Shown here: positions 9,879 to 35,193 of the stretch, one piece after another | Layout: the number at the start of each line of letters is the position of its first letter | How positions within the stretch are numbered: position 1 is the stretch's first letter | Source: a virus | Lineage: Duplodnaviria; Caudoviricetes | Direction: 5' to 3' (one strand) | Virus record (IMG/VR): IMGVR_UViG_3300025121_000014 | Location: 160,001 to 224,000 of that record | DNA: 64,000 nt | Made by a program: the position numbers and the translations under genes | The notes under the pieces: model-generated | Database searches by the model: none | The model's input: only the letters and a program-made list of their open reading frames with translations | What the model was told of the DNA's origin: nothing

Positions 9879-10742
9879 TTAGTTAGAAAGCTTATCATAG
9901 AAATCTTTCATCTCTTGAATTTGAATACTTAATTCTGGAATAGTTAAATCTATATCAGTTTCATTAAGAGTACTTAATGTTCTATTACACATAGATGACG
10001 CTTCTTTAGGTTCTACTTCTATGTTTAGTTCATAAATATTCGATATCATATTAACTAATTCTTCTTTTGTTACACTATTAGGTGAATATACGTGTTTAAC
10101 ACCTTCCCAATATAAATCATTTTTGATAATATATTCACATACTTTTGCAAATTGTAGACAAGTAATACCATTCCATGAATGATTAGTATAACCAAATACT
10201 TTTTTATCTTTATTCGATTTTATCCATTCAACTAATGATCTAGCTTGATTAACTTCTTCACCTATAATAGAAGTTCTAACAACAGTCGTATTTGCTGGTT
10301 CTCCTAATGATTTAGTTCTACCATAAATATCTGTTACATCATGTTCAGCATCTTCTTTATAATTACCGTTATTACCACTATATACACAATCCGTAGTTAT
10401 ATGAATTAATTTATAACCTAAAAAATCACAAGCATCTTTTAAATCGTATGGGAATAATGAATTGATTTTAATTGCATTTTTCACACCTAATTTATCTACT
10501 TGTGGTTTTATAGTACCTATACAATTTATAACAATAACTTCATCTGTGTTTATTAATTTCATATTATCTAATTTTATCTTTAAGTCGTTTAGAGCGTCTT
10601 TTGATGCATCTAATATTGTTCTATCTGTTCCAATAACATCTATACCTTTATTTAAAAAATATTTATAAACATATCTTCCTAACATTCCATTCTTACCTAA
10701 TACTATAATTCTTTTTTTCATTTTATTTGTTTTATTTTTCAT
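9879..10742 (-). CDS. RmlD-like NDP-4-keto-6-deoxyhexose reductase (SDR)
   Basis: GKNGMLG, INCIG, HITTDCVYSG and YGRTKSLGE. Confidence 0.88.
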   Translation of the reverse strand: MKNKTNKMKKRIIVLGKNGMLGRYVYKYFLNKGIDVIGTDRTILDASKDALNDLKIKLDNMKLINTDEVIVINCIGTIKPQVDKLGVKNAIKINSLFPYDLKDACDFLGYKLIHITTDCVYSGNNGNYKEDAEHDVTDIYGRTKSLGEPANTTVVRTSIIGEEVNQARSLVEWIKSNKDKKVFGYTNHSWNGITCLQFAKVCEYIIKNDLYWEGVKHVYSPNSVTKEELVNMISNIYELNIEVEPKEASSMCNRTLSTLNETDIDLTIPELSIQIQEMKDFYDKLSN

Positions 10743-11149
10743 CTATATTCAATATCCCATATATCCCATTTATTATATGATTCTCTAAAATCATCGCCTT
10801 TACCTTCTTCCATAGTAACAGTTGAAAAGAATATTACAATTGTATCTTCTTCTAATGTTTTAAATCCGTTATAATTTCCAGGTGGAATCCATAATATTTT
10901 AGGTGATGTATCACTTAAAACGAATTTATTAATTTCTTCTGTTTCCATATTAACTATACCTAATGATATAGAACCTTTTGGAACATAAACATATTTTCCT
11001 TCTTTTTTATGACCGTGCCAAGCTCTTATAAATCCTTTTTCATGATTTTCTACTTGATAAAATCTTTTAACTCCTTCGAAGTTAAAATCATTTACAAATC
11101 TTAATGTTCCTCTATCATCCGTAAATAATGCGCCTTTTATTTCTTTCAT
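10739..11149 (-). CDS. RmlC-like cupin (sugar 3,5-epimerase)
   Basis: DDRGTL, RAWHGHKKE and LWIPPGNYNGFKTLE. Confidence 0.85.
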   Translation of the reverse strand: MKEIKGALFTDDRGTLRFVNDFNFEGVKRFYQVENHEKGFIRAWHGHKKEGKYVYVPKGSISLGIVNMETEEINKFVLSDTSPKILWIPPGNYNGFKTLEEDTIVIFFSTVTMEEGKGDDFRESYNKWDIWDIEYR

Positions 11150-12114
11150 ATTTTCTTTAAATTGTTTTTATATTTTAGTTTATTTTTAATAAATTGTCCA
11201 TTATAATATGTATTTTCTTTTACATCACTTATTCTTTTTTCTTTAAAAATTTTAATCATATTTTTTACTTCTGATTCAATAGTATATAATGGTCGATATT
11301 CAAAATTATCCAATAATTTTTTATTACTAACTTTATAATTTCTTGCATCTTCAAAAGATATTTCAGTATAATTTATTTTAGTTTCAGGAATTACTTTAAC
11401 TACTCTTTCACCTAATGATTTCATAGTTGTATTTTCTTGAGATAATATAAATGTTCCTCTAATATCTTTTCTTACTGCTTCTTCTATATATCCAGCTATA
11501 TCTTTTATACAAATTAATGGTCTCCATTGTTCTCCACCAAATATATTTATTTCACCATCAAATATAGATTTCATAGTAATCACATTAACTACCAAATCTA
11601 ATCTAATTCTAGAATAAGTATCTCCAATTCCATAAACAGTTCCTAATCTAAATATTGTTCCATTTTTATCGGTAATATATTGTTCAGCTTTTAATTTAGT
11701 TGAAGCATAAGCTGATAATGGATTTGTAGGACTATTTTCATCTAACATATTATTTTGAGCACCATAAACAGAACAAGTACTCAAAAATATTAAATGTTTA
11801 TCATCAGATATATTATCACATATATTTCTGACAGCTTCATGGTTTATTTCATTTGTCAGTTCTAAATCAATAGAACAAGCTGGATCACCAACTAATGCGG
11901 CCATTATTATTATTACTTCAAAATTTTCTGATAATTCTACTATTTTGTTAGTATCTCTAATATCACCATATATAAAATTTACATTTTTTAAATATCTAGT
12001 TTCATAGACTAATTTATCAAAAATTGTAACATCATAATCTTTATCTGTTAGGTAATCGGTAGTATATCCTCCAATATAACCTGCCCCACCTAAAATTAGT
12101 ATTTTTTTATTCAT
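11146..12114 (-). CDS. NAD-dependent epimerase/dehydratase
   Basis: GGAGYIG, AALVGDPAC, STCSVYG, YASTK and FRLGTVYG. Confidence 0.9.
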   Translation of the reverse strand: MNKKILILGGAGYIGGYTTDYLTDKDYDVTIFDKLVYETRYLKNVNFIYGDIRDTNKIVELSENFEVIIIMAALVGDPACSIDLELTNEINHEAVRNICDNISDDKHLIFLSTCSVYGAQNNMLDENSPTNPLSAYASTKLKAEQYITDKNGTIFRLGTVYGIGDTYSRIRLDLVVNVITMKSIFDGEINIFGGEQWRPLICIKDIAGYIEEAVRKDIRGTFILSQENTTMKSLGERVVKVIPETKINYTEISFEDARNYKVSNKKLLDNFEYRPLYTIESEVKNMIKIFKEKRISDVKENTYYNGQFIKNKLKYKNNLKKI

Positions 12115-13205
12115 TATAAAAGTTGATTTAATTTTTCTATAATTAAGTCTGATGTATTACCATTACCTAACCAATCAGAATTAATTTTTATTTTACCATT
12201 TAGTATATCAATTATATACATTGTAGCTTGTGGCCAACTATCATCATATTTATTAACATTTAACATTACTGAACAATTATTTTCAACTGATTCTGGTCTT
12301 TCAGTAAAATCCCTTGGTACGATAACAGGGGTGTTAAATAACGAAGGTTCTTCTTGTGCAGTTCCACTATCGGATATAATGAATAAACTATGGTAAACAG
12401 CTTCTAAATAGGTTTTAAAAGACATTAAAGGAACAAGTTCTATATTTTTTTTATCTAAATCGATATTAAATTTTTTTAGCATTTGTTCAGTTCTACCAAA
12501 ATTTAACATTTTAATAGGTAAATTAAAAAATGTTTTTGACATATCATTAGCATAATTAATAATATTAATTAATCTATGTGGATATTTGAAATTTTCTGGC
12601 CTATGAATATCTAATATAATTTGATTATTGCGTTTAGGTGTTTTAAATATTTCTTCTTGATATTGTTTTGCTACTTCCACAATTGTATTACCGACAACGA
12701 ATATTTGTTCTTCTTTTATATTTTCTTGTAATGCTTTCTGTTTGTAATTTTCGTGATATACAAATAAATAATCTGAACAATGATCACAAACAACTCTATT
12801 TATTTCTTCTAACATTCTTTTATCATAACTTCTCATACCAGCTTCAATATGACCGATAGTATATCCTTCTTTTTTCAAAGATACAGCACAAGCTGCCGAA
12901 TTAGAATCACCTAAAAATAATATCATATCAGGTTTTAAATTTTCATTTCTAATTAATTCTATTATTTTAATTGATAAATCACCTAATTGATGGAAATGTT
13001 CTTTTCCTTTACCACCTATTTCTAAATTATAATCAGGTTTTCTAATTTTTAGTTCATCAAAGAATACATCAGATAATAATTTATCATAATGCTGTCCACT
13101 ATGAATTAAAATATGATTAAAATTATCATCTAATTTTTTAAAGATTGTAGACATTCTAATAAAGTCTGGTCTTATTCCTGTTATTGTTATTATAGTTTTT
13201 TTCAT
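12114..13205 (-). CDS. wecB: UDP-N-acetylhexosamine 2-epimerase (non-hydrolysing; WecB/FnlC type)
   Basis: GIRPDFIR, HSGQHYD, LGDSNS, HIEAGMRSYD...EEINR, SDSGTAQEE and TERPE. Confidence 0.92.
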   Translation of the reverse strand: MKKTIITITGIRPDFIRMSTIFKKLDDNFNHILIHSGQHYDKLLSDVFFDELKIRKPDYNLEIGGKGKEHFHQLGDLSIKIIELIRNENLKPDMILFLGDSNSAACAVSLKKEGYTIGHIEAGMRSYDKRMLEEINRVVCDHCSDYLFVYHENYKQKALQENIKEEQIFVVGNTIVEVAKQYQEEIFKTPKRNNQIILDIHRPENFKYPHRLINIINYANDMSKTFFNLPIKMLNFGRTEQMLKKFNIDLDKKNIELVPLMSFKTYLEAVYHSLFIISDSGTAQEEPSLFNTPVIVPRDFTERPESVENNCSVMLNVNKYDDSWPQATMYIIDILNGKIKINSDWLGNGNTSDLIIEKLNQLL

Positions 13206-13227: not shown

Positions 13228-14271
13228 TTAAAAGTTATTTTTTAAATCAAATTTCATTATAATTTCAACTAATTCTTTAAATTTAACTTTTGGTTCCCAT
13301 CCTAATATATTTTTAGCTTTTGAATAATCACCGATTAAAATATCTACTTCTGCTGGTCTAAAATATTTAGGGTCAATTTCTATAATAATTTTACCTGTTT
13401 TTTTATCTATTCCTTTTTCATCTAATCCTTCCCCGAACCATTCAATATTAAACATTGTATATTTATCTGTTTCTTTTATAAATTCTCTTATAGAATGTGT
13501 TTCGTTAGTTGCTAAAATAAAATCGTCAGGTTTATCTTGTTGTAACATTAGCCACATACCTTCTACATAATCCGGTGCATAACCCCAATCTCTTTTTGAA
13601 TCCAAATTACCTAATTTTAATGTATTATATTCTTCATTATTTTGAATAGATTTTTGTATATTTGATAATGTAGTAGTAATTTTTCTAGTTACAAATGTTT
13701 CACCTCTACGTTTTGATTCGTGGTTGAATAATATTCCATTAGATATAAATAAATTATAACTTTCTTTATAGTTTTTACAAATCCAATATGAATATAATTT
13801 AGCTACACCGTAAGGACTTCTTGGATAAAACGGAGTAGTTTCTTTTTGTGGAATTTCTTGTACTAAACCAAATAATTCTGAAGTCGTAGCATTATAAAAT
13901 TTACAATTAGGTGTGTGTTTTTTCATTGCTTCTAATAATTTCAATGTTCCTAAAGCATCTACTTGACCAGTGTATTCAGGTATTGAAAAAGATACATGAA
14001 CGTGTGATTGTGCTGCAAGATTATAAATTTCATCTGGTTTAGTTTTAAATATAATATTATCTAATGATAACGAATCGCTCATATCACCGTAATGTAATTT
14101 TAAATTTGGATTATTGTAAATATGATTTATCCTACCTGTATTAAATGAACTAGAACGTCTTATTATACCGTGTACTTCATATCCTTTATTAAGAAGTAAT
14201 TCTGCTAAATAACTTCCATCTTGACCTGTCACACCCGTAATCAACGCTATTTTTTTTCTTTTATTTTTCAT
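13228..14271 (-). CDS. gmd: GDP-mannose 4,6-dehydratase
   Basis: [53 protein letters not shown] and RDWGYA. Confidence 0.97.
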
Positions 14272-14300: not shown

Positions 14301-15161
14301 TCATAAGTTAAATTTATCACCAATCATCATTTTAAGATTATCTTCATACCACATTTCATGATTTGTTTTTTCAAATTTATGGTTAGCTATTTTTTCTGGT
14401 ATTTCGTTTGGATTATTAAAATAAATACAATCTTCAAATTGCAATTCTTCATAATATCTTTCCATTCCTGGTTTTATTTGTTGAATTGGTATCGAACCTA
14501 CAAATAAAATTTCCCAAAATCTAGGAGGAATAGATATTGCTGTACTAATAGGGGCAACTACATATTTGTACTGGCTTATTAAATTAATATAATCTTCTGT
14601 ACTTCTTTTATTATCATCTCTTTTAAAAACATCTACTTCAATAACTTTACTAACTTTTTCTAAAATATCTTTCCTTTCCTTATGCCATGAAGCTTCATAT
14701 TGTCCAACAAAAACCGCTTTATTTATTTTTGTTTCTGATATATTAAATTTATTTTTAAAATTTTTAGAAATTAAACATTTATTTAAATATTTATGATTAT
14801 ATCTTGCTGCATCTTCAATATCAATAAAAAACTGTGTAACATTTTTCATATTATCAATAGTTCTTTGATAATCTTCATTCCAAGGAAATGCAGAATTCCA
14901 AACTTTTTCGACATTTAAAATAACTACTTGAATATCACTATTATCTAATCTTTTAATAAAATCTGAATAATTCCATTGTTCATTATTAGGAATAAAATGT
15001 TCATCTAATATAAATAATATATCAACTTTATCTAATGTAGATATATTTTTGTCATATATAAATACATTATCATTTGGAAACAAATTTATAATTGCATAAT
15101 ACCAATTTTGTATTATCATACAATAGGTATAATTACTACTTATTATGCATATATTTCTCAT
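14301..15161 (-). CDS. Putative glycosyltransferase (GT-B-like C-terminus), paralog of 17419-18264
   Basis: ISQYKYVVAP...PRFWEILFVGSIPIQ; island context. Confidence 0.55.
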   Translation of the reverse strand: MRNICIISSNYTYCMIIQNWYYAIINLFPNDNVFIYDKNISTLDKVDILFILDEHFIPNNEQWNYSDFIKRLDNSDIQVVILNVEKVWNSAFPWNEDYQRTIDNMKNVTQFFIDIEDAARYNHKYLNKCLISKNFKNKFNISETKINKAVFVGQYEASWHKERKDILEKVSKVIEVDVFKRDDNKRSTEDYINLISQYKYVVAPISTAISIPPRFWEILFVGSIPIQQIKPGMERYYEELQFEDCIYFNNPNEIPEKIANHKFEKTNHEMWYEDNLKMMIGDKFNL

Positions 15162-15164: not shown

Positions 15165-16334
15165 TTAATTTATTTTTTTATTTACAATATCACATATAAA
15201 TAATATTTCATCTTTTGTTATTTGATGATTATTAGGTAAATACAATCCATATTTATCTACGTTATCAGCAAAATCAAATGATTGTTTTCCGTACATATCT
15301 ATCCAAAATGGTTGATTTCCTATATTGCCACATATTAAAGGTCTATTATCAATATTATTATTATTTAATTCTTTTACAATATCATCAATTTTAGGTGATA
15401 TAATTGGATAAGCAAAATTAGAAATATAATTATAATCATAATCAGTTATTTTCCAATAATCATTTTTTATATTTTTTTGATATAATTTATAATTTTTATT
15501 TCTAATTTTATTATGTTTATCTATTTTATTTAATTGATTAATTCCTATGAAAGCCTGTAAATCTGTTGACCTAAGATTAAAACCAGGTACAAAAAAAGAA
15601 TACAACGATTTAAAATCAGTAATATTATAATTGTTTTTTAATTTAGTTTGTTCATTTTCTTCTAAATCTCTAGACCAACCATGACTTCTTATAGATAATA
15701 GAATATTATATAATTCTTCATTATTTGTAGATACCATACCACCTTCTATAGTTGACATATGATGTCCAAAATAAAAAGAAAAAGAACTCATTAAACCAAA
15801 TGTTCCTGTTTTATTTCCTTTATATTCTGTTCCAATACTTTCACAAGAATCTTCTAATAATTGTACATCATATTTATTACAAATTTCTAATATTTCATCC
15901 ATTTTATTAGGAAAGGCTAATGCATGAACAATTATTAACGATGATGGATTTTCTGTTTTACATAAATATTCTAAATGTTCTAAATCTATACCTAGTGTAT
16001 CTTTATCACATTCACATAAGATCGGGGTTAATCCTAAATGTATAGTCGGGGAAACCGTTGTTACCCAAGATACACTAGGAACTACGATTTTATTATTTTT
16101 TAATCGTTTTGATAAAATCAAAGAATATACCATTGCTAAATTAGCTGATGATCCCGAATTTAAATATACAGAATATTTAACTCCTAACCATTTTGACCAT
16201 TTTTTTTCAAATTCTATTGTTAAACTTCCTTTCGTCAATTTAGGATTTGTTTTTAACCACTTTCTTAATAATTTTATATCTTTCTTATCTATTGTATCTT
16301 TAACTAGCGGAATATTTAAATTTTTTAATGTCAT
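15165..16334 (-). CDS. colD: ColD-like PLP-dependent GDP-4-keto-6-deoxymannose 3-dehydratase (DegT family with His at the catalytic site)
   Basis: NSGSSANL, EDSCES and SFSFYFGHHMSTIEGG (His instead of the Schiff-base Lys); 389 aa; near gmd. Confidence 0.72.
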   Translation of the reverse strand: MTLKNLNIPLVKDTIDKKDIKLLRKWLKTNPKLTKGSLTIEFEKKWSKWLGVKYSVYLNSGSSANLAMVYSLILSKRLKNNKIVVPSVSWVTTVSPTIHLGLTPILCECDKDTLGIDLEHLEYLCKTENPSSLIIVHALAFPNKMDEILEICNKYDVQLLEDSCESIGTEYKGNKTGTFGLMSSFSFYFGHHMSTIEGGMVSTNNEELYNILLSIRSHGWSRDLEENEQTKLKNNYNITDFKSLYSFFVPGFNLRSTDLQAFIGINQLNKIDKHNKIRNKNYKLYQKNIKNDYWKITDYDYNYISNFAYPIISPKIDDIVKELNNNNIDNRPLICGNIGNQPFWIDMYGKQSFDFADNVDKYGLYLPNNHQITKDEILFICDIVNKKIN

Positions 16335-17085
16335 CTATTGTATCATCCATTATTTTTTGATATTTATATTTAGTACTATTTAAATAAAATATTTTTCTTT
16401 TTAATAATAAATTATGATCAAAATTTTCTGTAACTAATTCATTATAATTTAAATCGAATTTATTATATAATTCTCTAATAAAATCATTAATATATATTAA
16501 TCTACCTGAGCCTACAATTTCATCATCTAATGCTATTATTGATTTTTCTATAATATATTTTGGATGAATTATATCTCTATAAAAATACGTATTGCCTATT
16601 TCTATTGAACTTTCATTAATTATAGAATCAAAAATTTTACTAAATAAAAATCCTTTTTTTCTATATGGACTATTGAAATTAAACGGATAAATTATAATGA
16701 CATTATTATAATTTTCTTTTATATAATTACTAATCATTTCTTTTGATTTTATATAAGGTGAATAATTATAACTATAATTTAGACTTAAATCAATAGGACC
16801 TTCACAATTATTCCATAATTCACACGTAGAATAATAAACTATCTTATTACATCTATCTTTAAAAAAATCAATCACTTTAATAGTATAATAAAAATTTATA
16901 TTAATAAATAATTGATCGTCATTTTCTATAAATGTTCTTTGCTCTGCAAAAGTGATATATACTCTGTCAAATTTATCATTTTTATATTTATCAAAATCTA
17001 TATTACGTGATGATATTTTTATATAATCATCTGGAAAATAATATGATAATTGTGATGTATTACCTATTACTAAGTTATTCTTCAT
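16300..17085 (-). CDS. Atypical SDR / NAD-dependent epimerase-like protein
   Basis: LVIGNTSQL, YYSTCELW, YIKSK (YxxxK), PFNFNS and RDIIH. Confidence 0.6.
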   Translation of the reverse strand: MKNNLVIGNTSQLSYYFPDDYIKISSRNIDFDKYKNDKFDRVYITFAEQRTFIENDDQLFININFYYTIKVIDFFKDRCNKIVYYSTCELWNNCEGPIDLSLNYSYNYSPYIKSKEMISNYIKENYNNVIIIYPFNFNSPYRKKGFLFSKIFDSIINESSIEIGNTYFYRDIIHPKYIIEKSIIALDDEIVGSGRLIYINDFIRELYNKFDLNYNELVTENFDHNLLLKRKIFYLNSTKYKYQKIMDDTIDDIKKFKYSAS

Positions 17086-17422
17086 GTCCTTTATATAATT
17101 TTACTGAATCTTCAATTAAAGATTTATTTTGTTTTATTGATTTATCAATCATTCTATTTATAGCTTCTACATATTTAGGTCTTTTTTGTTTAAAACAAAT
17201 ATCTATTTTCTTTTTATATTTAGCTATATCTTCATCATTTGTTGATTCACCTATAACATCTTCTAGATACCACATTCTACAATGAAGTATAGATAATTTT
17301 TCTATTACTTCTCCTATATTATCAGTTTCTATTAAATCGTTTGGTAAATCAACTTCTTTACTATTATTCAATGTTTCATGAACTATATTTTTTATTACTT
17401 CTTCTATTTTTTCTCCTATCAT
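17075..17422 (-). CDS. DUF4254-like helical protein
   Basis: IGEVIEKLSILHCRMWYLED pattern, typical of small proteins in polysaccharide loci. Confidence 0.55.
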   Translation of the reverse strand: MIGEKIEEVIKNIVHETLNNSKEVDLPNDLIETDNIGEVIEKLSILHCRMWYLEDVIGESTNDEDIAKYKKKIDICFKQKRPKYVEAINRMIDKSIKQNKSLIEDSVKLYKGHEE

Positions 17423-18264
17423 AACAAATTATCATTTTTTAATAATTTACCTATTGTATCTTCTAGCCATATCATATTATAACTATTATTTAATTTGCAA
17501 TTATTTATTTTGTTTTTTAATTCAGATATATTTTCAAAAAATATACAATCATCAAATTGTGATTCTATATCATAATATTTTAATGTATTATTTTTTACTT
17601 CTTGTATAGGTATTGATTTAGCTAATAATATTTCATAAAATCTCATTGGAAAAAAATGTGCATTACCAAAAGGTGAAATAACAAATTTATATTTTGCTAA
17701 TTTATGAATATATTCTATCCAAGTCATATTATTACTTTCAATTATATCTATTGGTATAATATTACTTATATGATTTAAAAGATTACGTCTTTTTTCATAA
17801 CCTACACTACCTATAAATATTGCTTTATTTAATTTATCTTGTTCTTGAATTTGCCCCAAAAAACTTTGAACATACTTTGATGGTGGCATTCTATTAAATC
17901 TTTTATTTAATTTTATGACATCATCTACATCAGACACATATTGATAAACATTATTAAATTTATTTACATATTCTTGATTTTCAACATTCCAAAAATAATC
18001 TGAATCCATAATACGTTCATTATTAAATATAATAACAATTATGTTGTTATTATTACATTCATTTATAAATTCTATATTCTTCCATATTTCTTTATTTTGT
18101 ATATGGTGTTCATCTCCTATACACAATATTTCTATATCATTTAAATCATTTATATTTTTAACTATTGTTAAATTTTTATAATGATACAGTATCGAATGAT
18201 AATAACTTTGAAATAATGGATGTTTTTGGAAATTTAAATCACATATTATACCTACATTTTTCAT
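17419..18264 (-). CDS. Putative glycosyltransferase, paralog of 14301-15161
   Basis: LAKYKFVISPFGN...RFYEILLAKSIPIQ. Confidence 0.55.
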   Translation of the reverse strand: MKNVGIICDLNFQKHPLFQSYYHSILYHYKNLTIVKNINDLNDIEILCIGDEHHIQNKEIWKNIEFINECNNNNIIVIIFNNERIMDSDYFWNVENQEYVNKFNNVYQYVSDVDDVIKLNKRFNRMPPSKYVQSFLGQIQEQDKLNKAIFIGSVGYEKRRNLLNHISNIIPIDIIESNNMTWIEYIHKLAKYKFVISPFGNAHFFPMRFYEILLAKSIPIQEVKNNTLKYYDIESQFDDCIFFENISELKNKINNCKLNNSYNMIWLEDTIGKLLKNDNLL

Positions 18265-26507: not shown

Positions 26508-27181
26508 TTATATTTTGAACTAACTCTTATATTTTTAGGATAATTTCTTACATATGTATGATAATATAAATTATTTGTTTTTAAATTTAAATGTTCTACT
26601 AAACATTTATAAGACGATTCCATTAAATGTATTTCTTTAGCATTTTCTATTATATAGGAATAATCAAATAAACCATATGTTTTTAACGGTCTAATTATTT
26701 TAATATTTTTAGGCAATAAATCTTCTTTTATTTTAAACCCTCTATCTATATCATCATGTACAAAAACATATTCATTTTCATTTAATCCTAATTCATTAAA
26801 AACAAATTTTTCTTTATCTATATTTCTTTCCATATAAAAATTATCCCATTTTTTATTAAAAACTATTCCTGCTAATTTATAGAATTGCATATCAAAATTA
26901 TCAGCATTTACATCACTTAATTGTAAATCACCAAATCCTATTTTTTTAAAATTTTTAATTTTATTATTTCTTATAAATGGTTCTATTACATATTCACCAT
27001 CTAAATCTATTGGGAATAATTCTACATTTATATCTAAATACATTTGTTTAACATTTTCTAAATATACTTTAAAACAAAATATATGAATTTTATCATAACT
27101 TTTATATAATTCTCTTACCATTCCGTTACATATGATATTATCACCTAATCCCATATGATGATATAAGTATAATTCTTCCAT
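26492..27181 (-). CDS. Putative glycosyltransferase (GLGD motif)
   Basis: HHMGLGDNIICNG, YVFVHDD and IENAKEIHLMESS. Confidence 0.55.
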   Translation of the reverse strand: MEELYLYHHMGLGDNIICNGMVRELYKSYDKIHIFCFKVYLENVKQMYLDINVELFPIDLDGEYVIEPFIRNNKIKNFKKIGFGDLQLSDVNADNFDMQFYKLAGIVFNKKWDNFYMERNIDKEKFVFNELGLNENEYVFVHDDIDRGFKIKEDLLPKNIKIIRPLKTYGLFDYSYIIENAKEIHLMESSYKCLVEHLNLKTNNLYYHTYVRNYPKNIRVSSKYNWIEY

Positions 27182-27993
27182 TATTTATAATATTGATTAT
27201 ATTTTTTAACATCATATTCATTAGTTCTTTTAGTAACCTGATTATATAATCTGTAATTTACTTGTGTTATTTCATATGGTACTGTTTTATCAATATATGC
27301 ATCAACATGACATTGATGTATAACTGATGGATTATCAATTATTTTTATATTCATTCCTTTTTTATGAATACGTTCTAAAAATTCATTATCATCCCAAGCT
27401 AAACCATTAGCATATCTTTCGTCAAATCCACCTAAATCATATAAATCTGATCTTGTTATAGCTGAACAAAAATGTAACATACTACGTCTATAAATTGAAT
27501 GGTTATACCAACCATTAGTTCTATTATCACATGATATATTATTATAAGGTTCTATAACATTTTTAATATTTTCTACGTAATTTTCTTCTTTATCAACATT
27601 ATTTATTAATTCAGTTAAATTTTTATCTACTGAATAACAAGCATAAGTTAAATATGTATTACCTTCTATATTTTTTTTAACAGATTCTATAATATTACCC
27701 ATATGAATACATTCTGGATTCTGTATTATAATTACATCATTTGTAATTTGATTAAATCCTATATTATATGGTATACATGGATTCATCCAATGTTTTTTAT
27801 CTTTATCTATTTTAATAATTTTAATATTCAAATCAAAAATATCTTTAAACTCAGTTATATCTTCATAACTCGCATCATCAATAATTAAAATTTCTATATC
27901 TTCATCATATTTCATATATGATGACATAGATTTTAATGTATTAAATAATATACTTTTCCTATTATAATATGACATTATTATTGTTATGCTCAT
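27181..27993 (-). CDS. GT2 glycosyltransferase, paralog of 33575-34354
   Basis: SYYNRK, IIDDAS, IIQNPEC and LGGFDERYANGLAWDDNEF. Confidence 0.88.
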   Translation of the reverse strand: MSITIIMSYYNRKSILFNTLKSMSSYMKYDEDIEILIIDDASYEDITEFKDIFDLNIKIIKIDKDKKHWMNPCIPYNIGFNQITNDVIIIQNPECIHMGNIIESVKKNIEGNTYLTYACYSVDKNLTELINNVDKEENYVENIKNVIEPYNNISCDNRTNGWYNHSIYRRSMLHFCSAITRSDLYDLGGFDERYANGLAWDDNEFLERIHKKGMNIKIIDNPSVIHQCHVDAYIDKTVPYEITQVNYRLYNQVTKRTNEYDVKKYNQYYK

Positions 27994-28002: not shown

Positions 28003-28695
28003 TTATTTTTTATAATATTTTTCAATTATAGGTGAACGCTGATCACCTAACGGTAAATCATTTTCAGCAATTGCTTCTCCAATAAAAGCAAAATTATCTA
28101 TTTTTCTATCTCTTTTTATGGGTATACCTATATTTTCATAATTATAATATTCATCATGTATTAGACAATCATTTTTAATAATCGGATATAAAATATCTCT
28201 TAGAAACATTTGATCAGTCGTTCTATTTCTATTATAATTAGCCGAATTTTTAATATAATTGTCCATTAATTCCTTTATATTAGTAATAATTCTGCCTTTT
28301 CCTCCCCACATACCAGCATTTATTACCCAACTATGACCAACTGGATGATCCCTTATTATATGAAAAGATTTATTAGATTCTATCCATTCACTAACAGCAA
28401 TTTCATCTCTTTCACTTATTCTAGAATCACAATCCCTTGATATAAAATAATCTACATTTTCACTTAAAGGAAAAAATCGCCAAGTTGAATTAATAAATCC
28501 TCTATCTTCATTAGTATTTATCAAATTAACACCATTATCTTTTAATTCATTTAAAATATTTATAGAAGTGGTATTATTATGATAAACTCTCATTTCCCAA
28601 TCAGTAAAAAGTTTTTTATGAAGCTTTGAATTATTTATAGCACCTATTGTATATTTTGATTCATTTCCATATAAAGAAAAACTTATTACTTTCAT
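28003..28695 (-). CDS. Putative glycosyltransferase-like protein
   Basis: KVISFSLYG, FISRDCDSR, HIIRDHP, AGMWG and DQ.FL. Confidence 0.6.
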   Translation of the reverse strand: MKVISFSLYGNESKYTIGAINNSKLHKKLFTDWEMRVYHNNTTSINILNELKDNGVNLINTNEDRGFINSTWRFFPLSENVDYFISRDCDSRISERDEIAVSEWIESNKSFHIIRDHPVGHSWVINAGMWGGKGRIITNIKELMDNYIKNSANYNRNRTTDQMFLRDILYPIIKNDCLIHDEYYNYENIGIPIKRDRKIDNFAFIGEAIAENDLPLGDQRSPIIEKYYKK

Positions 28696-28696: not shown

Positions 28697-29506
28697 TTAT
28701 ATAATTTGTAATTTTTTTAAAGTATTATAAATATTATCTTCTGATATTAAATATTTTTTGGCTTTTTCAAAATTTATTTTAACATATTCAAACACTTCAT
28801 TATATTTATTTTCATTTAATGTATTTATAATATTATTTAAGTCTAAATAAGAATCAATTTGAATTATACCTCTATTATCAAAAAAATCATTAATACTTGG
28901 ACAACCGTAATATATAGGTATAGTCCCCGTCATAAAACAGTCAATTAATTTTTCTGTAAAATAATAATCTTTTTTAGTATTTTCTATTGCAACAGAAAAT
29001 CTATAATCTTTTAACCCATCTAACTTATATTCTATGTTATTAAACCCTCTTCCATATATTTCTAAACCTTTACAATTTTTAATTACATCATGTCTTAATT
29101 TATGACCAATTGTAAAATTTTTATCTGATGATATAATTGATATATTTTTTGTTTTATCATAAATTAAATGATCTTCTGGTTTTATCCAACAACCACCTAC
29201 AGGATTTAATTTAAATTTATCATTTAAATCTAATAAATCTTTATCGAATGTTAAAATTAAATCAAATTTATCATAATTATTAGCTATCCATTCGTATGAA
29301 CTTTTAGTAATAACAGGTGATTCTAATAACCAAGCTATTTTAGTTTTTATATTTAAATTAACACTTTTAAGATTATTATCAGTAAATATAACTATATCAT
29401 CAATAGAATATGGTGTTCTGTCCCATTTCATTTTTGATGATTTATTGAATAATGTGCTATATTCTACATGATTAAATATACTATCTTGTATCTTTATATT
29501 TACCAT
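28697..29506 (-). CDS. GT10 fucosyltransferase-like protein
   Basis: YRFSVAIEN..KDYYFTEKLIDCF..GTIPIYYG (GT10 alpha-1,3 FucT-like motif). Confidence 0.8.
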   Translation of the reverse strand: MVNIKIQDSIFNHVEYSTLFNKSSKMKWDRTPYSIDDIVIFTDNNLKSVNLNIKTKIAWLLESPVITKSSYEWIANNYDKFDLILTFDKDLLDLNDKFKLNPVGGCWIKPEDHLIYDKTKNISIISSDKNFTIGHKLRHDVIKNCKGLEIYGRGFNNIEYKLDGLKDYRFSVAIENTKKDYYFTEKLIDCFMTGTIPIYYGCPSINDFFDNRGIIQIDSYLDLNNIINTLNENKYNEVFEYVKINFEKAKKYLISEDNIYNTLKKLQII

Positions 29507-30255
29507 ATTAAAATTGAATTATTTTTATGTGTTTTTGGTTCTTCTTCTTTCATTGATATATTATTATTAATTAAATTAATTAATTCGTCTAAATTATAAG
29601 AATTTATATTAAATTTATCACTTATAAAATTGGCTGTTATATATCCATTTTTACAATTATTCAATATTTTATTTATATAAATATCTTGAATATTTTTATC
29701 ACACTCTGTAAATGCATAATTAGATATAACCAAATCATAATTTTCAATATCTTTTAATTGTGTTATGTCTTTAAAAAAAACATTATTTATATTGTTTAAA
29801 CTTAAATATTTTTTTGATAAATCTAATGATTCTTCTAAATCAATTAAAGTATATGAATTAAATTTAAAATATTTAGAAAAAATTAAACATTGTCCACCAT
29901 ATCCACCACCAATTTCAACTATATTTTTATTATTAAAATCCCCTAATATTATTAAATCAGATAAAACTTTAACATATCTTAATGTACTTGGTGATATATA
30001 TCCTATATTTTCAAATAATATTTTATTTGGTGTACCAAATTCATCATTAACTTTAAATTTATTAATATCATTAATCAATTGATTATTATCACGTTCTATT
30101 ACTTTTAAATATTCTTTTGCTTGACTTTCAGATGTATGTTCTAATATTTCTGTATAATCTGGCAATTGTTTAAATTTATTAAATAAAGATTGATTAATTA
30201 AAATTTGTTTAATAATATTTTTATATTTATCTGTATCACTTATACTACTTTTCAT
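29500..30255 (-). CDS. Putative sugar O-methyltransferase
   Basis: SPSTLRY, IVEIGGGYGG, LIDLEE and ISNYAFTEC. Confidence 0.78.
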   Translation of the reverse strand: MKSSISDTDKYKNIIKQILINQSLFNKFKQLPDYTEILEHTSESQAKEYLKVIERDNNQLINDINKFKVNDEFGTPNKILFENIGYISPSTLRYVKVLSDLIILGDFNNKNIVEIGGGYGGQCLIFSKYFKFNSYTLIDLEESLDLSKKYLSLNNINNVFFKDITQLKDIENYDLVISNYAFTECDKNIQDIYINKILNNCKNGYITANFISDKFNINSYNLDELINLINNNISMKEEEPKTHKNNSILIW

Positions 30256-31042
30256 TCAATTTTAAATTTATTTTTATTTCTTGATGACAAGATATATTAT
30301 TAATATTATCAAAATCTTTCATATCTATAATATAATCATCTAAATATTTATCATTTAATTCGTCAATATTTTCATTGCCATGTTTATTTGGATTATTATT
30401 TTGAACTATATTACAAGGATTATTAATTATAATTGATTTTTGATAACATATCATTTTTGGTAAATTTATTGGTTTAACTGCCATATTTCCTTCAAACGAA
30501 TTAGGATTTGTATAATTCATATATAATATATATGGTAATATTTCATTAGTTCTAAATATATTACCATCTACTGACATAGGATAACCATAATCTCCTTTTT
30601 GATTTCTCCAATAAAATATATTATCATTATCAAAATCTGGATTAGAAATAGGAATAGATGCAGCATAACAATAAGTTAATCCAGGTTGTAATCTTAAACT
30701 TCTACATAATATTTCTTTATCATTTTTAAAAATATTCATTTGATTATCAAAGAAATCAAAATCATTTTTAAAAACAATATCATCAACAAAAAATGTAGTA
30801 AATTCATTTGATTGATTAACTAAATTAATTAAATCTAATTTAAAATACTTTTCTATTACAAAATTAATATGATGGAATTTATTAATTAATTTATCATATC
30901 CATTCTTAAAAGAATCATTTGAATATGTATATAATACATTAATAATATATTTATCATAATCTTTAACATATTTAATAAAACTTCTAATAAATAAATCTAA
31001 TTGCAATGCTCTATCTTTACTGAATACTATTATATTTATCAT
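30245..31042 (-). CDS. GT-A-like glycosyltransferase
   Basis: FSKDRALQLD, FFVDDIVF and YPMSVDGNIFR. Confidence 0.6.
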   Translation of the reverse strand: MINIIVFSKDRALQLDLFIRSFIKYVKDYDKYIINVLYTYSNDSFKNGYDKLINKFHHINFVIEKYFKLDLINLVNQSNEFTTFFVDDIVFKNDFDFFDNQMNIFKNDKEILCRSLRLQPGLTYCYAASIPISNPDFDNDNIFYWRNQKGDYGYPMSVDGNIFRTNEILPYILYMNYTNPNSFEGNMAVKPINLPKMICYQKSIIINNPCNIVQNNNPNKHGNENIDELNDKYLDDYIIDMKDFDNINNISCHQEIKINLKLNEK

Positions 31043-31968
31043 TTTATATTTTCTTCATAAATTTTTATAGTCTGTTTAATTCCATCATCTAAATTAATTT
31101 TAGGTTTCCAACCTAAATTATTTATTTTAGAAGTATCTAATTGTTTTCTAAATGTACCATTTGGTTTACTATCATCCCATATTATATTACCTTTAAAATC
31201 ATAAGCTAATGCTATTTTTGTAGCTAATTCTTTTATTGTTAAATCTATACCAGTACCAACATTTAACGGAATAACACCATCATAATTTAACATTAAAAAT
31301 AACATAGCATCAGATAAATCATCAACATGTAAAAATTCTCTATAAACAGAACCATCACCCCATAATGTTACATCACTTTTATTTATTTTTGCTTCATAAA
31401 ATTTTCTAATTAATGCAGCAAATACGTGTGATTTATTTAAATCATAATTATCTTTTATTGATCCATATAAATTAGTTGGCATAACTGATATGAAATTACA
31501 CCCATATTGTTTTTTATAACTTTCTGCCATTTTTAAACCAGCAATTTTTGCAATAGCATATGGTTCATTTGTTTGCTCTAATTCACTAGTTAATAAATAT
31601 TCTTCTTTTATTGGTTGTGGGCAATTTTTAGGATATATACAAGAACTTCCTAATAATAATAATTTTTTAACTCCAAATTCTTTTGAATTATGAATAATAT
31701 TAGATTGCATCATAATATTATTATAAATGTAATCAGCTCTACGAATATTATTATCATAAATTCCACCTACTAAACCAGCACACATAAAAATATATTCAGG
31801 CATCATACTATTAAAAAACATTTTTGTTTTATATTGATCAGTTAAATCTAATTCATTACTAGATAGTGTTATTAAATTACTATAACCTTCTTGTTTTAAT
31901 TTATTGACCATTGCAGATCCAACTAAACCATTATGCCCTGCAATATAAATTCTACTATCTTTATTCAT
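31039..31968 (-). CDS. fcl: GDP-L-fucose synthase (Fcl/ColC family)
   Basis: AGHNGLVGSA, LGSSCIYPK, TNEPYAIAKIAG, MPTNLYG, WGDGSVYREFLHVDD and KPNGT. Confidence 0.96.
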   Translation of the reverse strand: MNKDSRIYIAGHNGLVGSAMVNKLKQEGYSNLITLSSNELDLTDQYKTKMFFNSMMPEYIFMCAGLVGGIYDNNIRRADYIYNNIMMQSNIIHNSKEFGVKKLLLLGSSCIYPKNCPQPIKEEYLLTSELEQTNEPYAIAKIAGLKMAESYKKQYGCNFISVMPTNLYGSIKDNYDLNKSHVFAALIRKFYEAKINKSDVTLWGDGSVYREFLHVDDLSDAMLFLMLNYDGVIPLNVGTGIDLTIKELATKIALAYDFKGNIIWDDSKPNGTFRKQLDTSKINNLGWKPKINLDDGIKQTIKIYEENIK

Positions 31969-31970: not shown

Positions 31971-32711
31971 TTATATTTTATTTTTTAATTCATCATATAA
32001 TGGTTTATCTCTAATATATTTTGAAGTTTTTAATTGTTCTATCGTATTTATTTTCATATCATTTATGGGATTTAAATCATTATAAACATATAATATATCA
32101 TCAATAAATTTTACATGATTTTTACCACACAATTCTAATAAAGGATAAATATAAGACGCATCACTTGCAACTTTAAAATATTCACCGTTTTCATTTCTTA
32201 AATCTTTATCATCAATTAATTTCCATAATTTATTTTTAAATGTTCTTAAATGACCAGCAAACCAATTTCCACTTTTTCTATAAGTTCTAAAATTTAAAAT
32301 ATCTTTACAATATTTACCATAAGAACCACTTAATGGTATAAATTGACCATATGTCATATAAATATTATCATCTTGATATACATCGTTTAAATATGATAAT
32401 ACTTTATCATTATATAAAAAATCATCCCCATCAACCATAACTATTATATCTTCTTTATCATCAGAATATAAATTAATTCCCTTAACAAAATTAGCCAATG
32501 GTGTATTAAGTCTGACATCATTTTTTATTAATTCAAAATCATATTTGTTGTGTAAATAACTTAATTTTTTATATGTACTATCAGTTGAATTATCATCAAT
32601 AACTATAATATTATAATTATTATAATCTTGCATAAGTACAGAATTCATACATTTTTCTATATATTGTTCAGCATTATAAACTGGTATTATTATAATAAAT
32701 TTATTTTCCAT
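31971..32711 (-). CDS. GT2 glycosyltransferase
   Basis: IIPVYNAE, IDDNSTD and VDGDD. Confidence 0.9.
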   Translation of the reverse strand: MENKFIIIIPVYNAEQYIEKCMNSVLMQDYNNYNIIVIDDNSTDSTYKKLSYLHNKYDFELIKNDVRLNTPLANFVKGINLYSDDKEDIIVMVDGDDFLYNDKVLSYLNDVYQDDNIYMTYGQFIPLSGSYGKYCKDILNFRTYRKSGNWFAGHLRTFKNKLWKLIDDKDLRNENGEYFKVASDASYIYPLLELCGKNHVKFIDDILYVYNDLNPINDMKINTIEQLKTSKYIRDKPLYDELKNKI

Positions 32712-32714: not shown

Positions 32715-33575
32715 TTATAAAATATGTTTAATTAAATTTGAAAAAGTTATTCTATATCTATGATAATTTTCTTCATTTATCCCATTATTAACTTCTTGTG
32801 ATGCTGCATGACCACCATACCAATGATAACCAATCGATTCTTCGCTAAAATCACCAATGTCAAAACCAGTTCTATAATTATCAATTATTCTACTCCAATC
32901 ATAATGATAAACTAATGATGTTGGAATACTATAATGTTTTAAGAATGGAAAGTTTTGTTGTAAATCCGGAAAAATATTAGCATTTGATCTATTTTTTCCA
33001 AACATACTATAAATAGCATCAACTCCATAAGATTGATAATTATTAGAACCATCTATATTAAATATACTTTTATATAATTTTTTATAAAAATTATTACCTT
33101 CTTTACTACCTAAAAATCCAATAGCAACATAATTATGTTGCTGATATAATATAGTATCGTAATCATTTTCAATTATTTTATTATATTCATTATCAAATGG
33201 TCTAAAATATAATATATCCATATCTGAATAAAAACCACCATTTTTATATAAATCATAATATCTGAACATATCACTTTTATGAACTGGTGATATATTTTTA
33301 AATTTTTCTCTTAAATTATCTGGGATATCTATATCTTCAAAATTTATTATTGTAATACCTAAATCTTTTACATGATCTAAATAATCATCACCTATATAAT
33401 TAGAAAAATCCTGTTGTTCAGGTCCAATCCATTCTTTACTAATATGCTTGTTATCAGAATGATATAATATTATATCCCAATCTGGATTCATTTTTTTGAA
33501 AGAAAATAATGTCATATATCTCATCCAAGATAATTTTTCACCACTCCAATAAAAAAACATTCTTTTTGGTATCAT
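32715..33575 (-). CDS. GT32-like DXD glycosyltransferase
   Basis: IPKRMFFYW, KSDMFRY...GGFYSDMD and YHWYGG. Confidence 0.82.
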   Translation of the reverse strand: MIPKRMFFYWSGEKLSWMRYMTLFSFKKMNPDWDIILYHSDNKHISKEWIGPEQQDFSNYIGDDYLDHVKDLGITIINFEDIDIPDNLREKFKNISPVHKSDMFRYYDLYKNGGFYSDMDILYFRPFDNEYNKIIENDYDTILYQQHNYVAIGFLGSKEGNNFYKKLYKSIFNIDGSNNYQSYGVDAIYSMFGKNRSNANIFPDLQQNFPFLKHYSIPTSLVYHYDWSRIIDNYRTGFDIGDFSEESIGYHWYGGHAASQEVNNGINEENYHRYRITFSNLIKHIL

Positions 33576-34354
33576 TATTTATTTATATTTTTTGCTTTAT
33601 AATCTATTTCGTGTAACATTTGATTATATAATGTATAGTTTTTTTTAAATTTTGGATCGTTATAATATGAACTTAATCCGTGAAATTGATGAACAACAAA
33701 AGGTCTATCTATAATTTGTATATTCATTTTTTTTCTTTTTATTCTTTCTAAAAATTCATTATCATCCCAAGCAATACCATCCGCAAATCTCTCATCAAAT
33801 CCACCTAAATCATCTAAATCAGATTTCATTATTGATGAACAAAAATGTAACATACCTGGTTTAAATTTTGAATGGTTATACCAAGCTGTTTCACCGTCAA
33901 CTCTAGTAGCCCTATTATTTAAAGGATTTAATATTTTTCCAATTTGATTAATATGTTTTGTAATTTCTTTTGTAATTCTTTCATCAACAGAATAACAAGC
34001 AAAATTTAAATACATATTTTCTTGTATGTTATTTATAGTATAATCTATAATATCTCCAAAATGTAAACATTCTGGATTTTGTAATATTATAACATCACCT
34101 TTTACTTCTTTAAAACCAATATTAAAAGGTACACAAGGATTAGACCACCATTTATTATTTTTTTCTATTCTTATTATTTTTAAATTTAAATCAAATTGAT
34201 CTATAAAATCGTCTAATTTATGAATATCTTCACTAGCATCATCTACTACTATTATTTCTATATCATTTTTATGTTTAGAATTTTCAATTGTTTTTAATGT
34301 ATTAAAAAATAATTGTTTTCTATTATAATATGCTGTTACTATTGATACTTTCAT
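33575..34354 (-). CDS. GT2 glycosyltransferase, paralog of 27181-27993
   Basis: AYYNRK, VDDAS, ILQNPEC and GGFDERFADGIAWDDNEF. Confidence 0.88.
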   Translation of the reverse strand: MKVSIVTAYYNRKQLFFNTLKTIENSKHKNDIEIIVVDDASEDIHKLDDFIDQFDLNLKIIRIEKNNKWWSNPCVPFNIGFKEVKGDVIILQNPECLHFGDIIDYTINNIQENMYLNFACYSVDERITKEITKHINQIGKILNPLNNRATRVDGETAWYNHSKFKPGMLHFCSSIMKSDLDDLGGFDERFADGIAWDDNEFLERIKRKKMNIQIIDRPFVVHQFHGLSSYYNDPKFKKNYTLYNQMLHEIDYKAKNINK

Positions 34355-35193
34355 ATATTTTTAATTTTTCCAAAATCTTTAATTTTTTCTATATATTCTA
34401 AAAATTCAATATTGTTCATTTTTTTAATAGATTCATATAATTTTTTATTTTCCTCTATTCTAGAATAATAATTATTTAAAACATCAAATTTATTTTTACC
34501 TGAAAAATGATATAAATGTAAACAATTATATTTATCATCATAAAAAATATTTAGTCCAAAATTTTTAATTTTTATATCTACAATATCATCTTCATGTGCA
34601 TAACCATAACAATTTTCATCAAAGCCTTTAATTTTTAAATAATCACTTTTTCTTATAAAAAATGAACCACCAGTCAAAACACCTAAATCTTTTCCCGAAG
34701 TAACTGTTTTCATAGATGATAATTTATTAAAATCTAATTCTTTTGTATAAAATAAATGACTATTTATGTAATTTAAATAACTTATACTAGAATATGGCTT
34801 TACTACATCAAATTCTTTACTATCAATTAATTCAATATATTCATATGCTTTTTTATGCACAACTATATCACCATCTTGAAATATTAAATTATCGTATTTA
34901 CAATTATTAACTCCAATATTATAACCCCAACCTTTATTAAAAACACCATCATTCTTAACAAAAATGTGATTGATTTCTATATTTTTATTAAATTTTATAT
35001 TATTTAACCAATCTATAGTAGATTTATTATCTTGTTCAACAATTACAATTTCGGTATTATATTTTAAATTATCATTAATATATTCTAATATCTTAATAAT
35101 ATTGAATTTTCTATAATTTTGATAATTTTTATAATTTACATTTTTATTAAAATGTGATTCTTTATAAGAAATTATAATTGATACGTTGTTCAT
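34351..35193 (-). CDS. GT2/GT7 (galactosyltransferase-like) glycosyltransferase
   Basis: FNKGWGYNIG, FQDGD and GFDENCYGYAHEDD. Confidence 0.82.
   Translation of the reverse strand: MNNVSIIISYKESHFNKNVNYKNYQNYRKFNIIKILEYINDNLKYNTEIVIVEQDNKSTIDWLNNIKFNKNIEINHIFVKNDGVFNKGWGYNIGVNNCKYDNLIFQDGDIVVHKKAYEYIELIDSKEFDVVKPYSSISYLNYINSHLFYTKELDFNKLSSMKTVTSGKDLGVLTGGSFFIRKSDYLKIKGFDENCYGYAHEDDIVDIKIKNFGLNIFYDDKYNCLHLYHFSGKNKFDVLNNYYSRIEENKKLYESIKKMNNIEFLEYIEKIKDFGKIKNI

Follow-up and report, generated by a model that had tools for sequence, protein, structure and literature searches.

A 32-gene island of soluble glycan-biosynthesis enzymes in a huge phage and the possible acceptors of its product

What does a phage build, and on what, with 25 kb of genes for making and joining unusual sugars? 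The question is raised by a 64,000-nt stretch of the IMG/VR virus record IMGVR_UViG_3300025121_000014 (positions 160,001 to 224,000; hereafter the window), in which 32 co-oriented open reading frames (ORFs) of 115-389 aa, g01 to g32, occupy positions 9879-35193 on the minus strand (~25 kb). Neighbouring genes are spaced by -35 to +29 nt, with overlaps at 17 of the 31 junctions, a layout that bears out the tightly overlapping, co-oriented block of 32 genes in 25 kb described in a first-pass annotation of the sequence. It is nearly certain that this island is a phage-encoded glycan factory, in which soluble enzymes make, join and methylate unusual activated sugars. As for the acceptor of the glycan, a virion protein or another phage protein is the answer that we tentatively favour, at somewhat less than an even chance.

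None of the 32 island proteins has a membrane span (the Kyte-Doolittle value in a 19-residue window never exceeded 1.65 in 32 of 32), and across the whole window every ORF of at least 50 aa shows fewer than three hydrophobic peaks. The lack of a polytopic ORF rules out Wzx, Wzy, an ABC permease, a phosphoglycosyl transferase, WaaL and a glycosyltransferase (GT) of the GT-C fold within the window. A Pfam search for the initiating phosphoglycosyl transferase families Bac_transf and Glycos_transf_4 revealed no match in the 32 ORFs or the scanned flanks. The first-pass statements that Wzx, Wzy, an ABC exporter and an initiating phosphoglycosyl transferase are missing, and that nearly all the proteins look soluble, therefore hold for the 64-kb window. 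In two complete relatives, the phages LR756501.1 and S-SRM01, no match to Polysacc_synt, Bac_transf, Glycos_transf_4, Wzy_C, ABC2_membrane or PMT_2 was found, in a search whose controls matched in 9-14 of 14 cells. Of the features of a Wzx/Wzy- or ABC-dependent O-antigen or capsule locus, the clustered nucleotide-sugar and GT genes are present in the island, but priming and flippase, polymerase or exporter genes were found neither in the window nor in the two relatives. Solubility had also been taken as an argument against an O-antigen or capsule locus. The missing export, priming and polymerase genes point the same way, but the solubility argument itself is weaker than claimed, because the GTs of O-antigen and capsule loci are also soluble; since O-antigen GTs lack membrane spans, it is neutral.

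The absence of the six export and priming families from the two complete relatives leans toward a phage-made acceptor, and so does the enzyme g13 (19740..20549; minus strand, as for all island genes below). A075L of chlorovirus PBCV-1 is the founding member of CAZy family GT114 and catalyses beta-xylosyl transfer to O4 of fucose. A PDB search using g13 revealed homology with this enzyme (8q8i, 8avq and 8asa, E 3e-37), which places g13 in GT114. Residues 67-266 of g13 align to residues 68-277 of the A075L chain, and the two proteins are identical at all four aligned key residues, Asp73, Asn148, Arg158 and Arg208, in a numbering that uses a chain offset of +2 inferred from the 'SD' pair named in PMC11571054. 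In A075L, which was shown experimentally to build the Vp54 capsid N-glycan of PBCV-1, Asp73 is the catalytic base and the other three residues bind the donor (PMC11571054). For g13, transfer onto fucose O4 is predicted only from this characterized relative. An enzyme akin to a proven capsid-glycan enzyme that acts on fucose, in an island that itself makes fucose, suggests that the acceptor is made by the phage. Furthermore, a 530-aa protein encoded on another contig (L014, 8412-10004) fuses homologues of g13 and of the GT32 enzyme g12, a Rosetta-stone hint that the two catalyse consecutive steps.

The same leaning comes from g10, g22, g24 and g27, which belong to mostly viral families. An AlphaFold2 (AF2) model of g10 (17419..18264; pLDDT 93) shows a compact GT-B protein resembling GT10 fucosyltransferases, with the Helicobacter pylori alpha1,3-fucosyltransferase 2nzw, FUT9 and GtfC/Gtf3 as the top Foldseek matches, and some g10 homologues contain PF00852. 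The g10 family appears restricted to phages: among 185,579 species genomes it gave one match, which is itself from the phage lineage with capsid-tail cassettes described below. For the other three, assignments come from ESM Atlas structures, whose closest clusters are 78-100% viral. The DUF6165/GT9-like protein g22 (26492..27181) has template-modelling (TM) scores of 0.83-0.91 to viral clusters and 0.73 to GT9, with homologues in S-SRM01 and LR756501. A GT-A fold was found for g27 (30245..31042), with TM scores of 0.89-0.93 to clusters named 'glycosyltransferase' and 0.62-0.65 to GT2; its LR756501 homologue is 47% identical. The viral GT-A/GT8-like transferase g24 (28003..28695) has 398 homologous clusters, the best 120 of them at 56-67% identity, and is 56% identical to an S-SRM01 gene. 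In two contexts it is part of a 12-15 kb island whose genes run GT11, FkbM, GT10, GT2, g24, GT2, between dUTPase and PhoH genes. Identity at this level over hundreds of clusters is easier to reconcile with an acceptor that is conserved than with a host glycan that varies, and g24 is a candidate for the step that contacts a conserved acceptor. Both the g22 and the g24 families have members in Nucleocytoviricota.

The neighbourhoods of related genes in smaller phages point to the virion as well. Homologues of g05, g10, g12, g13, g21 and g28 were found in 7-10 kb cassettes flanked by the major capsid gene on one side and the genes for tail terminator and tail tube on the other, on four contigs of 34-76 kb that are siphovirus-like by gene content and on one colinear contig of a metagenome-assembled genome; the g10 homologues there are 41-47% identical to g10. 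This position between capsid and tail genes leans toward a phage-made acceptor. The first gene of these cassettes has a sub-threshold MptE/Maf-like match (E 7.5e-5), and no homologue of it was found in the window. The tail-tube proteins of three of the contigs (L014, 15260-15688; L015, 15537-15968; L016, 16484-16918) end in Ser/Gly/Thr-rich C-termini such as ...TTNSGSGSDA, which are possible O-glycosylation sites as judged from their composition.

Larger relatives carry islands of their own. LR756501.1, a 735-kb phage, has a 23-kb co-oriented island at ~315-337 kb (L007, 11845-34793) that shares g08, g09, g22, g24 and g25; no island homologues were found around its topoisomerase gene, and its island occupies another genome position. 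It holds in addition two sugar C-methyltransferases, a radical-SAM/SPASM enzyme, a split thiamine pyrophosphate (TPP) enzyme pair of the transketolase/E1-like type, DUF1848, a 1122-aa multi-GT protein with GT47/GT114-like, Nucleotid_trans and GT25 domains, and a NusG-like gene at its end. The split TPP pair recurs on another contig (L012), which suggests a branched-chain sugar route. S-SRM01, a cultured freshwater cyanomyovirus, has a cluster of ~17 genes that shares g05, g21, g22, g24, g25 and g28 at 41-66% identity. Islands of this kind are thus widespread, and those of large T4-like cyanophages have already been published under the names lipopolysaccharide ('LPS') or 'cell wall synthesis and modification' genes.

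On a phage-made acceptor, the ~16 GTs would assemble a fucose-rich heteroglycan, with three GT10-like fucosyltransferase candidates (g06, g10 and g25) and the GT114 enzyme among them, and four methyltransferases would cap the glycan with methyl groups. Assembly would take place in the cytoplasm directly on the acceptor, for which one or several virion proteins are the likeliest candidates, and would need no undecaprenyl carrier, flippase or polymerase, by analogy with the capsids of chloroviruses and the capsids and tail tubes of some actinobacteriophages. A bolder version is possible but doubtful: a bacterial virus would glycosylate its virion proteins in chlorovirus style at giant-virus scale without a lipid carrier, the product of the ~16 GTs and four methyltransferases being a complex, methylated glycan with fucose, colitose and an amino sugar, and g24 would be a new protein-priming GT shared by hundreds of aquatic phages.

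Several points weigh against a phage protein as the acceptor. No protein-priming enzyme of the Maf, OGT, HMW1C or PglL type was identified in the island, which lies amid replication genes (topoisomerase II, nucleotide metabolism) and outside the structural module; in T4-like phages, the topoisomerase and nucleotide-metabolism region is early or middle territory. The missing export genes would be equally expected if a host lipid carrier and host export machinery were borrowed. The capsid-tail cassettes all belong to a single related lineage and so amount to roughly one independent observation. DNA modification is another possible function of GT clusters located close to structural genes (bioRxiv 10.1101/2023.12.21.572611), and the homologous clusters of the cyanomyoviruses S-SRM01, S-SCSM2R and S-SSM7 have been read as host-surface modification (PMC12801897). 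Cytoplasmic glycosylation of a phage substrate had been proposed in the first pass for virion proteins or DNA alike; the virion-protein half of that proposal is favoured by g13, the cassettes, the viral families and the relatives, but the DNA half gained no positive support.

That cyanophage reading leads to remodelling of the host envelope, which we regard as somewhat unlikely. Here the soluble GTs would build or extend a glycan on host undecaprenyl-phosphate intermediates of O-antigen, capsule or Bacteroidota general O-glycosylation; a host primer, flippase, ligase or oligosaccharyltransferase would see to export, and the altered receptors would serve superinfection exclusion or escape from grazers. 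It fits this proposal that g25 shares 44% identity with the S-SCSM2R GT10, that six genes are common to S-SRM01, that fucose, colitose, sugars of the Fuc3N/Qui3N type and ManNAc are established as typical O-antigen sugars, and that the island lies among genes of early or middle type. The solubility of its GTs does not speak against it, O-antigen GTs having no membrane spans either. However, the window has no primer, flippase, polymerase, ligase, ABC or GT-C gene, and with the six export and priming families not found in the two complete relatives either, host export enzymes would need to accept ~16 foreign linkages. Several of the families are almost purely viral, g10 being absent from bacterial genomes, g13 is homologous to a capsid-glycan enzyme, and the cassettes of relatives sit within structural modules. 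Moreover, the cyanophage interpretation itself rests on assumption: the 'LPS' and 'cell wall synthesis and modification' clusters are thought to modify the host surface, without tests (PMC12801897).

Another intracellular target, such as a phage protein or compartment that is not part of the virion, a soluble oligosaccharide, a glycolipid or a small molecule, seems distinctly improbable. The deoxy, amino and methyl sugar chemistry does resemble natural-product glycosylation, as is well established, and unusual protein targets do exist, given that several window ORFs begin with peptides resembling the T4 capsid-targeting sequence. However, no genes for aglycone synthesis lie in or adjoin the island, and the number of transferases, 16, speaks for a large glycan and not for a decorated metabolite; we know of no precedent for such a target. 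Hypermodification of DNA, with sugars placed on hydroxymethylated phage bases as in T-even phages and 5hmC-glycan clusters, is very unlikely. The island does adjoin DNA-metabolism genes (topoisomerase II, Tmk, DHFR), two Mom-like genes are nearby, and DNA does receive glycans of up to three sugars from phage GTs that are relatives of LPS enzymes (bioRxiv 10.1101/2023.12.21.572611). However, the island ORFs include no cytosine methyltransferase, TET/JBP dioxygenase (5mYOX), hydroxymethylase or T4-type alpha- or beta-glucosyltransferase domain, and the glycans known from DNA consist of one to three hexose, HexNAc or heptose units, far less than an island with 16 transferases and routes to deoxy, amino and methyl sugars would make. 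Searches of the relatives for Tet_JBP and T4-Gluco-transf gave no match but had no positive control, so that this result counts for little. The two Mom-family-domain proteins, at 59685-61121 and 63332-64000 (one of them also with DUF7487), suggest by their domains that DNA bases are modified as well, by a system that has nothing to do with the island.

There remains the possibility that the contig is cellular, or that a bacterial O-antigen locus has been mis-joined to phage DNA. The split T4-type topoisomerase II beside the island gives its best matches in uncultured phages of 460-735 kb (LR756500-504 and LR745206), as does an 873-aa ORF. These matches assign the contig to a huge phage akin to the 'LR7565xx' phages of 460-735 kb, in support of the phage origin assumed in the first pass. 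Identical island sequence, continuous with the topoisomerase genes, was found in independent assemblies and in groundwater and soil runs of several studies; no RNA data set was listed among the public runs with the sequence. Contigs of four runs had identical sequence and no credible structural variant; the joints listed in them were disregarded, as their sides are only 20-25 nt long in AT-rich sequence. In IMG/VR, neither an exact-pattern scan nor a topoisomerase-based scan gave a match. A single public contig joins the island to cellular membrane-GT genes: in L002 (ENA ERZ4902915 NODE_484, 14857-17839), g27 runs in frame at residue 234 into a polytopic membrane protein of the PTPS_related family, followed by PMT_2. 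We considered L002 as a strain variant with g27 fused to a GT-C-like membrane domain and rejected it. The join is found in this lone contig at 4.4x coverage and breaks at the 12-nt microhomology GATAAATATTTA, and the membrane gene has a free-standing, 94%-identical copy in cellular-looking contexts (L011, L010); L002 is probably a chimera, made in assembly or in the library, between the phage and a low-GC cell that occurs together with it. Set against the island-topoisomerase continuity in several independent assemblies and runs, the uniform composition of ~22% GC across the whole window and flanks that match huge phages, a cellular or mis-joined contig is extremely improbable.

The sugars that the island would supply can be read from its nucleotide-sugar enzymes. 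The first pass had counted at least three routes, and at least four can be distinguished: GDP-fucose, a ColD-type 3,6-dideoxyhexose, a 3-amino-3,6-dideoxyhexose, and ManNAc with an Rml-like triad. GDP-mannose 4,6-dehydratase (GMD) g05 (13228..14271; TIGR01472 528 bits against an NCBIfam cut-off of 415), 66% identical to the GMD of S-SRM01, is predicted to convert host GDP-mannose to GDP-4-keto-6-deoxymannose. From there g28 (31039..31968), a GDP-L-fucose synthase (Fcl) or ColC-like protein (NF047922 405 bits against a cut-off of 500; PF01370 E 4e-58), would yield GDP-L-fucose. The same intermediate would lead to a colitose-type 3,6-dideoxyhexose through g07 (15165..16334), which matches the ColD structures 2gms and 3gr9 over its full length (E 7.5e-66). 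In g07 the motif 'GHH' aligns with the active-site 'SHH' of ColD, at the position where aminotransferases carry the lysine that binds pyridoxal phosphate. The active-site His of ColD was pinpointed through the H188N mutant chain 3b8x, and g07 keeps this His; by its sequence, g07 is a ColD-type GDP-4-keto-6-deoxymannose 3-dehydratase and not an aminotransferase. The reduction that follows could fall to g08 or g28. A short protein resembling short-chain dehydrogenases/reductases (SDR), g08 (16300..17085) has a partial PF01370 match (E 7e-7) and a homologue at 50% identity in the LR756501 island, and we infer that it is a candidate reductase partner of g07.

An amino-sugar branch is formed by g15 (21264..21650), an FdtA/QdtA-type 3,4-ketoisomerase (PF05523 E 1e-28), and g16 (21631..22677), a DegT-family sugar aminotransferase of the C3 type (PF01041 E 3e-58) whose best PDB matches include the C3 aminotransferases WbpE and QdtB. 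Together they would turn a 4-keto-6-deoxyhexose nucleotide into a 3-amino-3,6-dideoxyhexose. The non-hydrolysing, WecB-type UDP-GlcNAc 2-epimerase g04 (12114..13205; PF02350 E 1.4e-66; TIGR00236 199 bits against a cut-off of 210) would interconvert UDP-GlcNAc and UDP-ManNAc. At the end of the island, g03, g02 and g01 would oxidise, epimerise and reduce a further NDP-sugar. Of these, g03 (11146..12114) is a 322-aa SDR sugar-nucleotide dehydrogenase or epimerase (PF01370 E 1e-32) with 6vo6, a 'sugar-nucleotide epimerase/dehydratase', as its top PDB match (E 5.8e-45); we take 6vo6 to be the Campylobacter jejuni heptose C4-dehydrogenase Cj1427. A 136-aa RmlC/FdtA-like cupin epimerase or isomerase is encoded by g02 (10739..11149; PF00908 E 6e-10, PF05523 E 8.5e-7), and a 287-aa RmlD-like NDP-4-keto-sugar reductase by g01 (9879..10742; PF04321 E 1.3e-18, with TIGR01214 far under its cut-off). 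No nucleotidyltransferase was found among the 32 island genes, which implies that primary sugar activation is left to the host. Just outside, the 337-aa product of 7924-8937 (minus strand) contains, in residues 199-322 only, a domain of the cytidylyltransferase-like type (PF01467 E 1e-13); it could be a sugar-phosphate or nicotinamide mononucleotide (NMN) nucleotidyltransferase and is the sole candidate activating enzyme near the island.

As many as 16 GT-like proteins were counted in the island from Pfam, PDB, AF2 with Foldseek and ESM Atlas comparisons, in line with the ~15 of the first pass; the evidence is thin for two of them, g20 and, by paralogy, g06. Eight are at or near the Pfam cut-off. 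They comprise the GT2 proteins g19 (24046..24939; PF00535 35.5 bits, cut-off 23.3) and g29 (31971..32711; PF00535 E 5.6e-21); the GT32 proteins g12, with a DXD motif (18970..19743; PF04488 E 3e-16), and g30 (32715..33575; PF04488 35 bits, cut-off 23); the paralogues g23 (27181..27993; PF10111 and PF00535) and g31 (33575..34354; PF00535 E 3.7e-11), both GT2 with a GT7C-like tail (phmmer E 1e-82 between them); the GT2/GT7C-like g32 (34351..35193; PF02709 22.8 bits, cut-off 23, and PF13641), the first gene of the block; and the GT10 fucosyltransferase-like g25 (28697..29506; PF00852 37 bits, cut-off 23.9). Homologues of g25 occur in LR756501 (54% identity), S-SRM01, S-SCSM2R (annotated as GT10), S-SSM7, S-SM2 and S-T4. 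A paralogue of g10 (phmmer E 1e-45), g06 (14301..15161) is a compact GT-B, GT10-like protein with a weak PF13524 match. In the amino-sugar branch, the AF2 model of g14 (20551..21264; pLDDT 95.8) has a GT-A fold and TM scores of 0.5-0.56 to TarP, TarS, SpsA and CgT in Foldseek. Some g14 homologues are fused to DegT aminotransferases, which fits the placement of g14 beside g15 and g16. The possible GT8-like transferase g20 (24936..25847) has a weak PDB match to LgtC (E 0.06), and PDB sequence searches with g17, g20, g22, g24 and g27 gave no informative match. Elsewhere in the window, Pfam matches confirmed the two outlying GTs of the first pass, a GT2 at 45563..46183 on the plus strand (PF00535 E 4e-18) and a GT4-like GT-B at 58373..59566 on the minus strand (PF13692 E 2e-9, PF00534 E 2e-8).

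Four S-adenosylmethionine (SAM)-dependent or FkbM-family methyltransferases exceed the Pfam cut-offs: the class I proteins g11 (18273..18953; PF08241 26.7 bits, cut-off 21.2) and g26 (29500..30255; PF01564 23.6 bits, cut-off 22.9, and several Methyltransf families), the MetW-like g18 (23424..24044; PF07021 28.4 bits, cut-off 21) and the FkbM-family g21 (25848..26507; PF05050 E 1.4e-19), which has homologues in S-SRM01 (41% identity) and in the capsid-tail cassettes (49-56%). The lower figure of the 4-5 methyltransferases expected earlier thus stands; g17 (22688..23422) is possibly a fifth, by a PDB methyltransferase match at E 0.07 only, with no Pfam or PHROG match. The small protein g09 (17075..17422) has no family above cut-off and no assigned role; its LR756501 homologue, 27% identical, adjoins the g08 homologue there. 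A PHROGs search of ten unannotated ORFs gave no match.

The island is flanked by replication and nucleotide-metabolism genes (topoisomerase II, Tmk, DHFR and an exonuclease). Scans for sigma-70 promoters and terminators in the island gave nothing above the level of shuffled sequence, and with no such signal inside it the block is apparently transcribed as one long unit or a few. The motif TAATATATA, 13 nt upstream of g32, was considered as a promoter; its count in the window, 24, equals the 23.6 expected by chance, and no inference on timing is drawn from it. A hairpin at 35226-35251 (GGGA, 9-nt loop, TCCC) followed by T8 on the minus strand lies 47 nt before g32 and overlaps the topoisomerase stop codon; the terminator scan made no call there, and the hairpin may separate the island transcript from that of the topoisomerase. 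Directly downstream of the island, tandem minus-strand ORFs of 59 and 70 aa (9434-9613 and 9650-9862) each have the motif GGVCEGIGEYT..DP..WR and then one hydrophobic helix; they are putative PspC-domain membrane proteins. An ankyrin-repeat protein (54226-55137, minus strand; Ank E 3e-28) carries the T4 capsid-targeting-like peptide MKTFQEFANES at an internal start.

Comparison with known systems shows what is particular to the island. The 'LPS' or 'cell wall synthesis and modification' clusters of the cyanomyoviruses P-SSM2, S-SSM7, S-SCSM1, S-SCSM2R and S-SRM01 likewise lie in large myovirus-type genomes, lack export genes and combine GDP-fucose genes with GT2, GT10, GT11 and GT25 transferases and FkbM methyltransferases. 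The present, uncultured phage resembles them in multi-gene homology and in a large myovirus-type genome, the latter judged by topoisomerase II and the 873-aa ORF, with virion genes outside the window. However, the island is larger and contiguous, with 32 genes, 16 of them GT-like, in 25 kb, compared with ~17 genes in S-SRM01 and with the 22 dispersed genes of S-SCSM2R, of which 13 encode GTs, a number described as perhaps unsurpassed among marine phages (PMC12801897). It also adds ColD, FdtA with an aminotransferase, WecB and GT114, and it comes from groundwater, with 22% GC and a non-cyanobacterial host.

A comparison with fibril glycosylation in Mimiviridae had been drawn earlier. It is apt in kind, but at the sequence level chlorovirus capsid glycosylation is closer, through g13. 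The PBCV-1 Vp54 machinery (A064R, A075L, A111/114R and A061L) consists of soluble GTs and methyltransferases that make a fucose-centred, methylated capsid glycan with no host secretory machinery (PMC9614988, PMC11571054). The likeness lies in g13, the sequence homologue of A075L with its key residues kept; in contrast, only one chlorovirus enzyme has a detected homologue in the island, the chlorovirus genes are dispersed and their host is a eukaryote. The fibril-glycosylation clusters of Megavirinae (Mimivirus, Megavirus and Tupanvirus) hold 6 to 33 genes and combine rare bacterial-type sugar routes with GTs and methyltransferases (PMC10117803). The island matches them in size (32 genes) and in the clustering of viral nucleotide-sugar, GT and methyltransferase genes, whereas viosamine, bacillosamine, Rha2NAc and Qui2NAc are the sugars there and amoebae the hosts. 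Nothing homologous to the fibril acceptor proteins was noticed, with no search aimed at them. In the actinobacteriophages Che8, Corndog and Myrna, phage GTs with or without methyltransferases reportedly decorate capsid and tail-tube subunits, as described by Freeman et al. in 2023 (cited through PMC12619734). Homologues of six island genes do occupy a capsid-tail position in other phages, but the actinobacteriophage sets consist of 2-5 genes inside the structural module, whereas the 32 genes of the island lie among replication genes. What is new here is the size of the island, its ties to capsid-glycosylation enzymes of viruses and the complete relatives in which the searched export families were not found; smaller related blocks have already been published.

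If the target is the host envelope, the island is among the largest known auxiliary surface-remodelling modules of phages. If the virion is what the glycan covers, huge phages would be a further case, beside chloroviruses and mimiviruses, of viruses that produce an elaborate sugar coat of their own, and such a coat could hide the particles from grazers, host receptors or defence sensors. Phages and giant viruses may share an ancient stock of glycosylation genes, as the GT114 link suggests. Because S-SRM01 can be cultivated and shares six genes with the island, it offers a route to settling the role of the 'LPS genes' of T4-like cyanophages.

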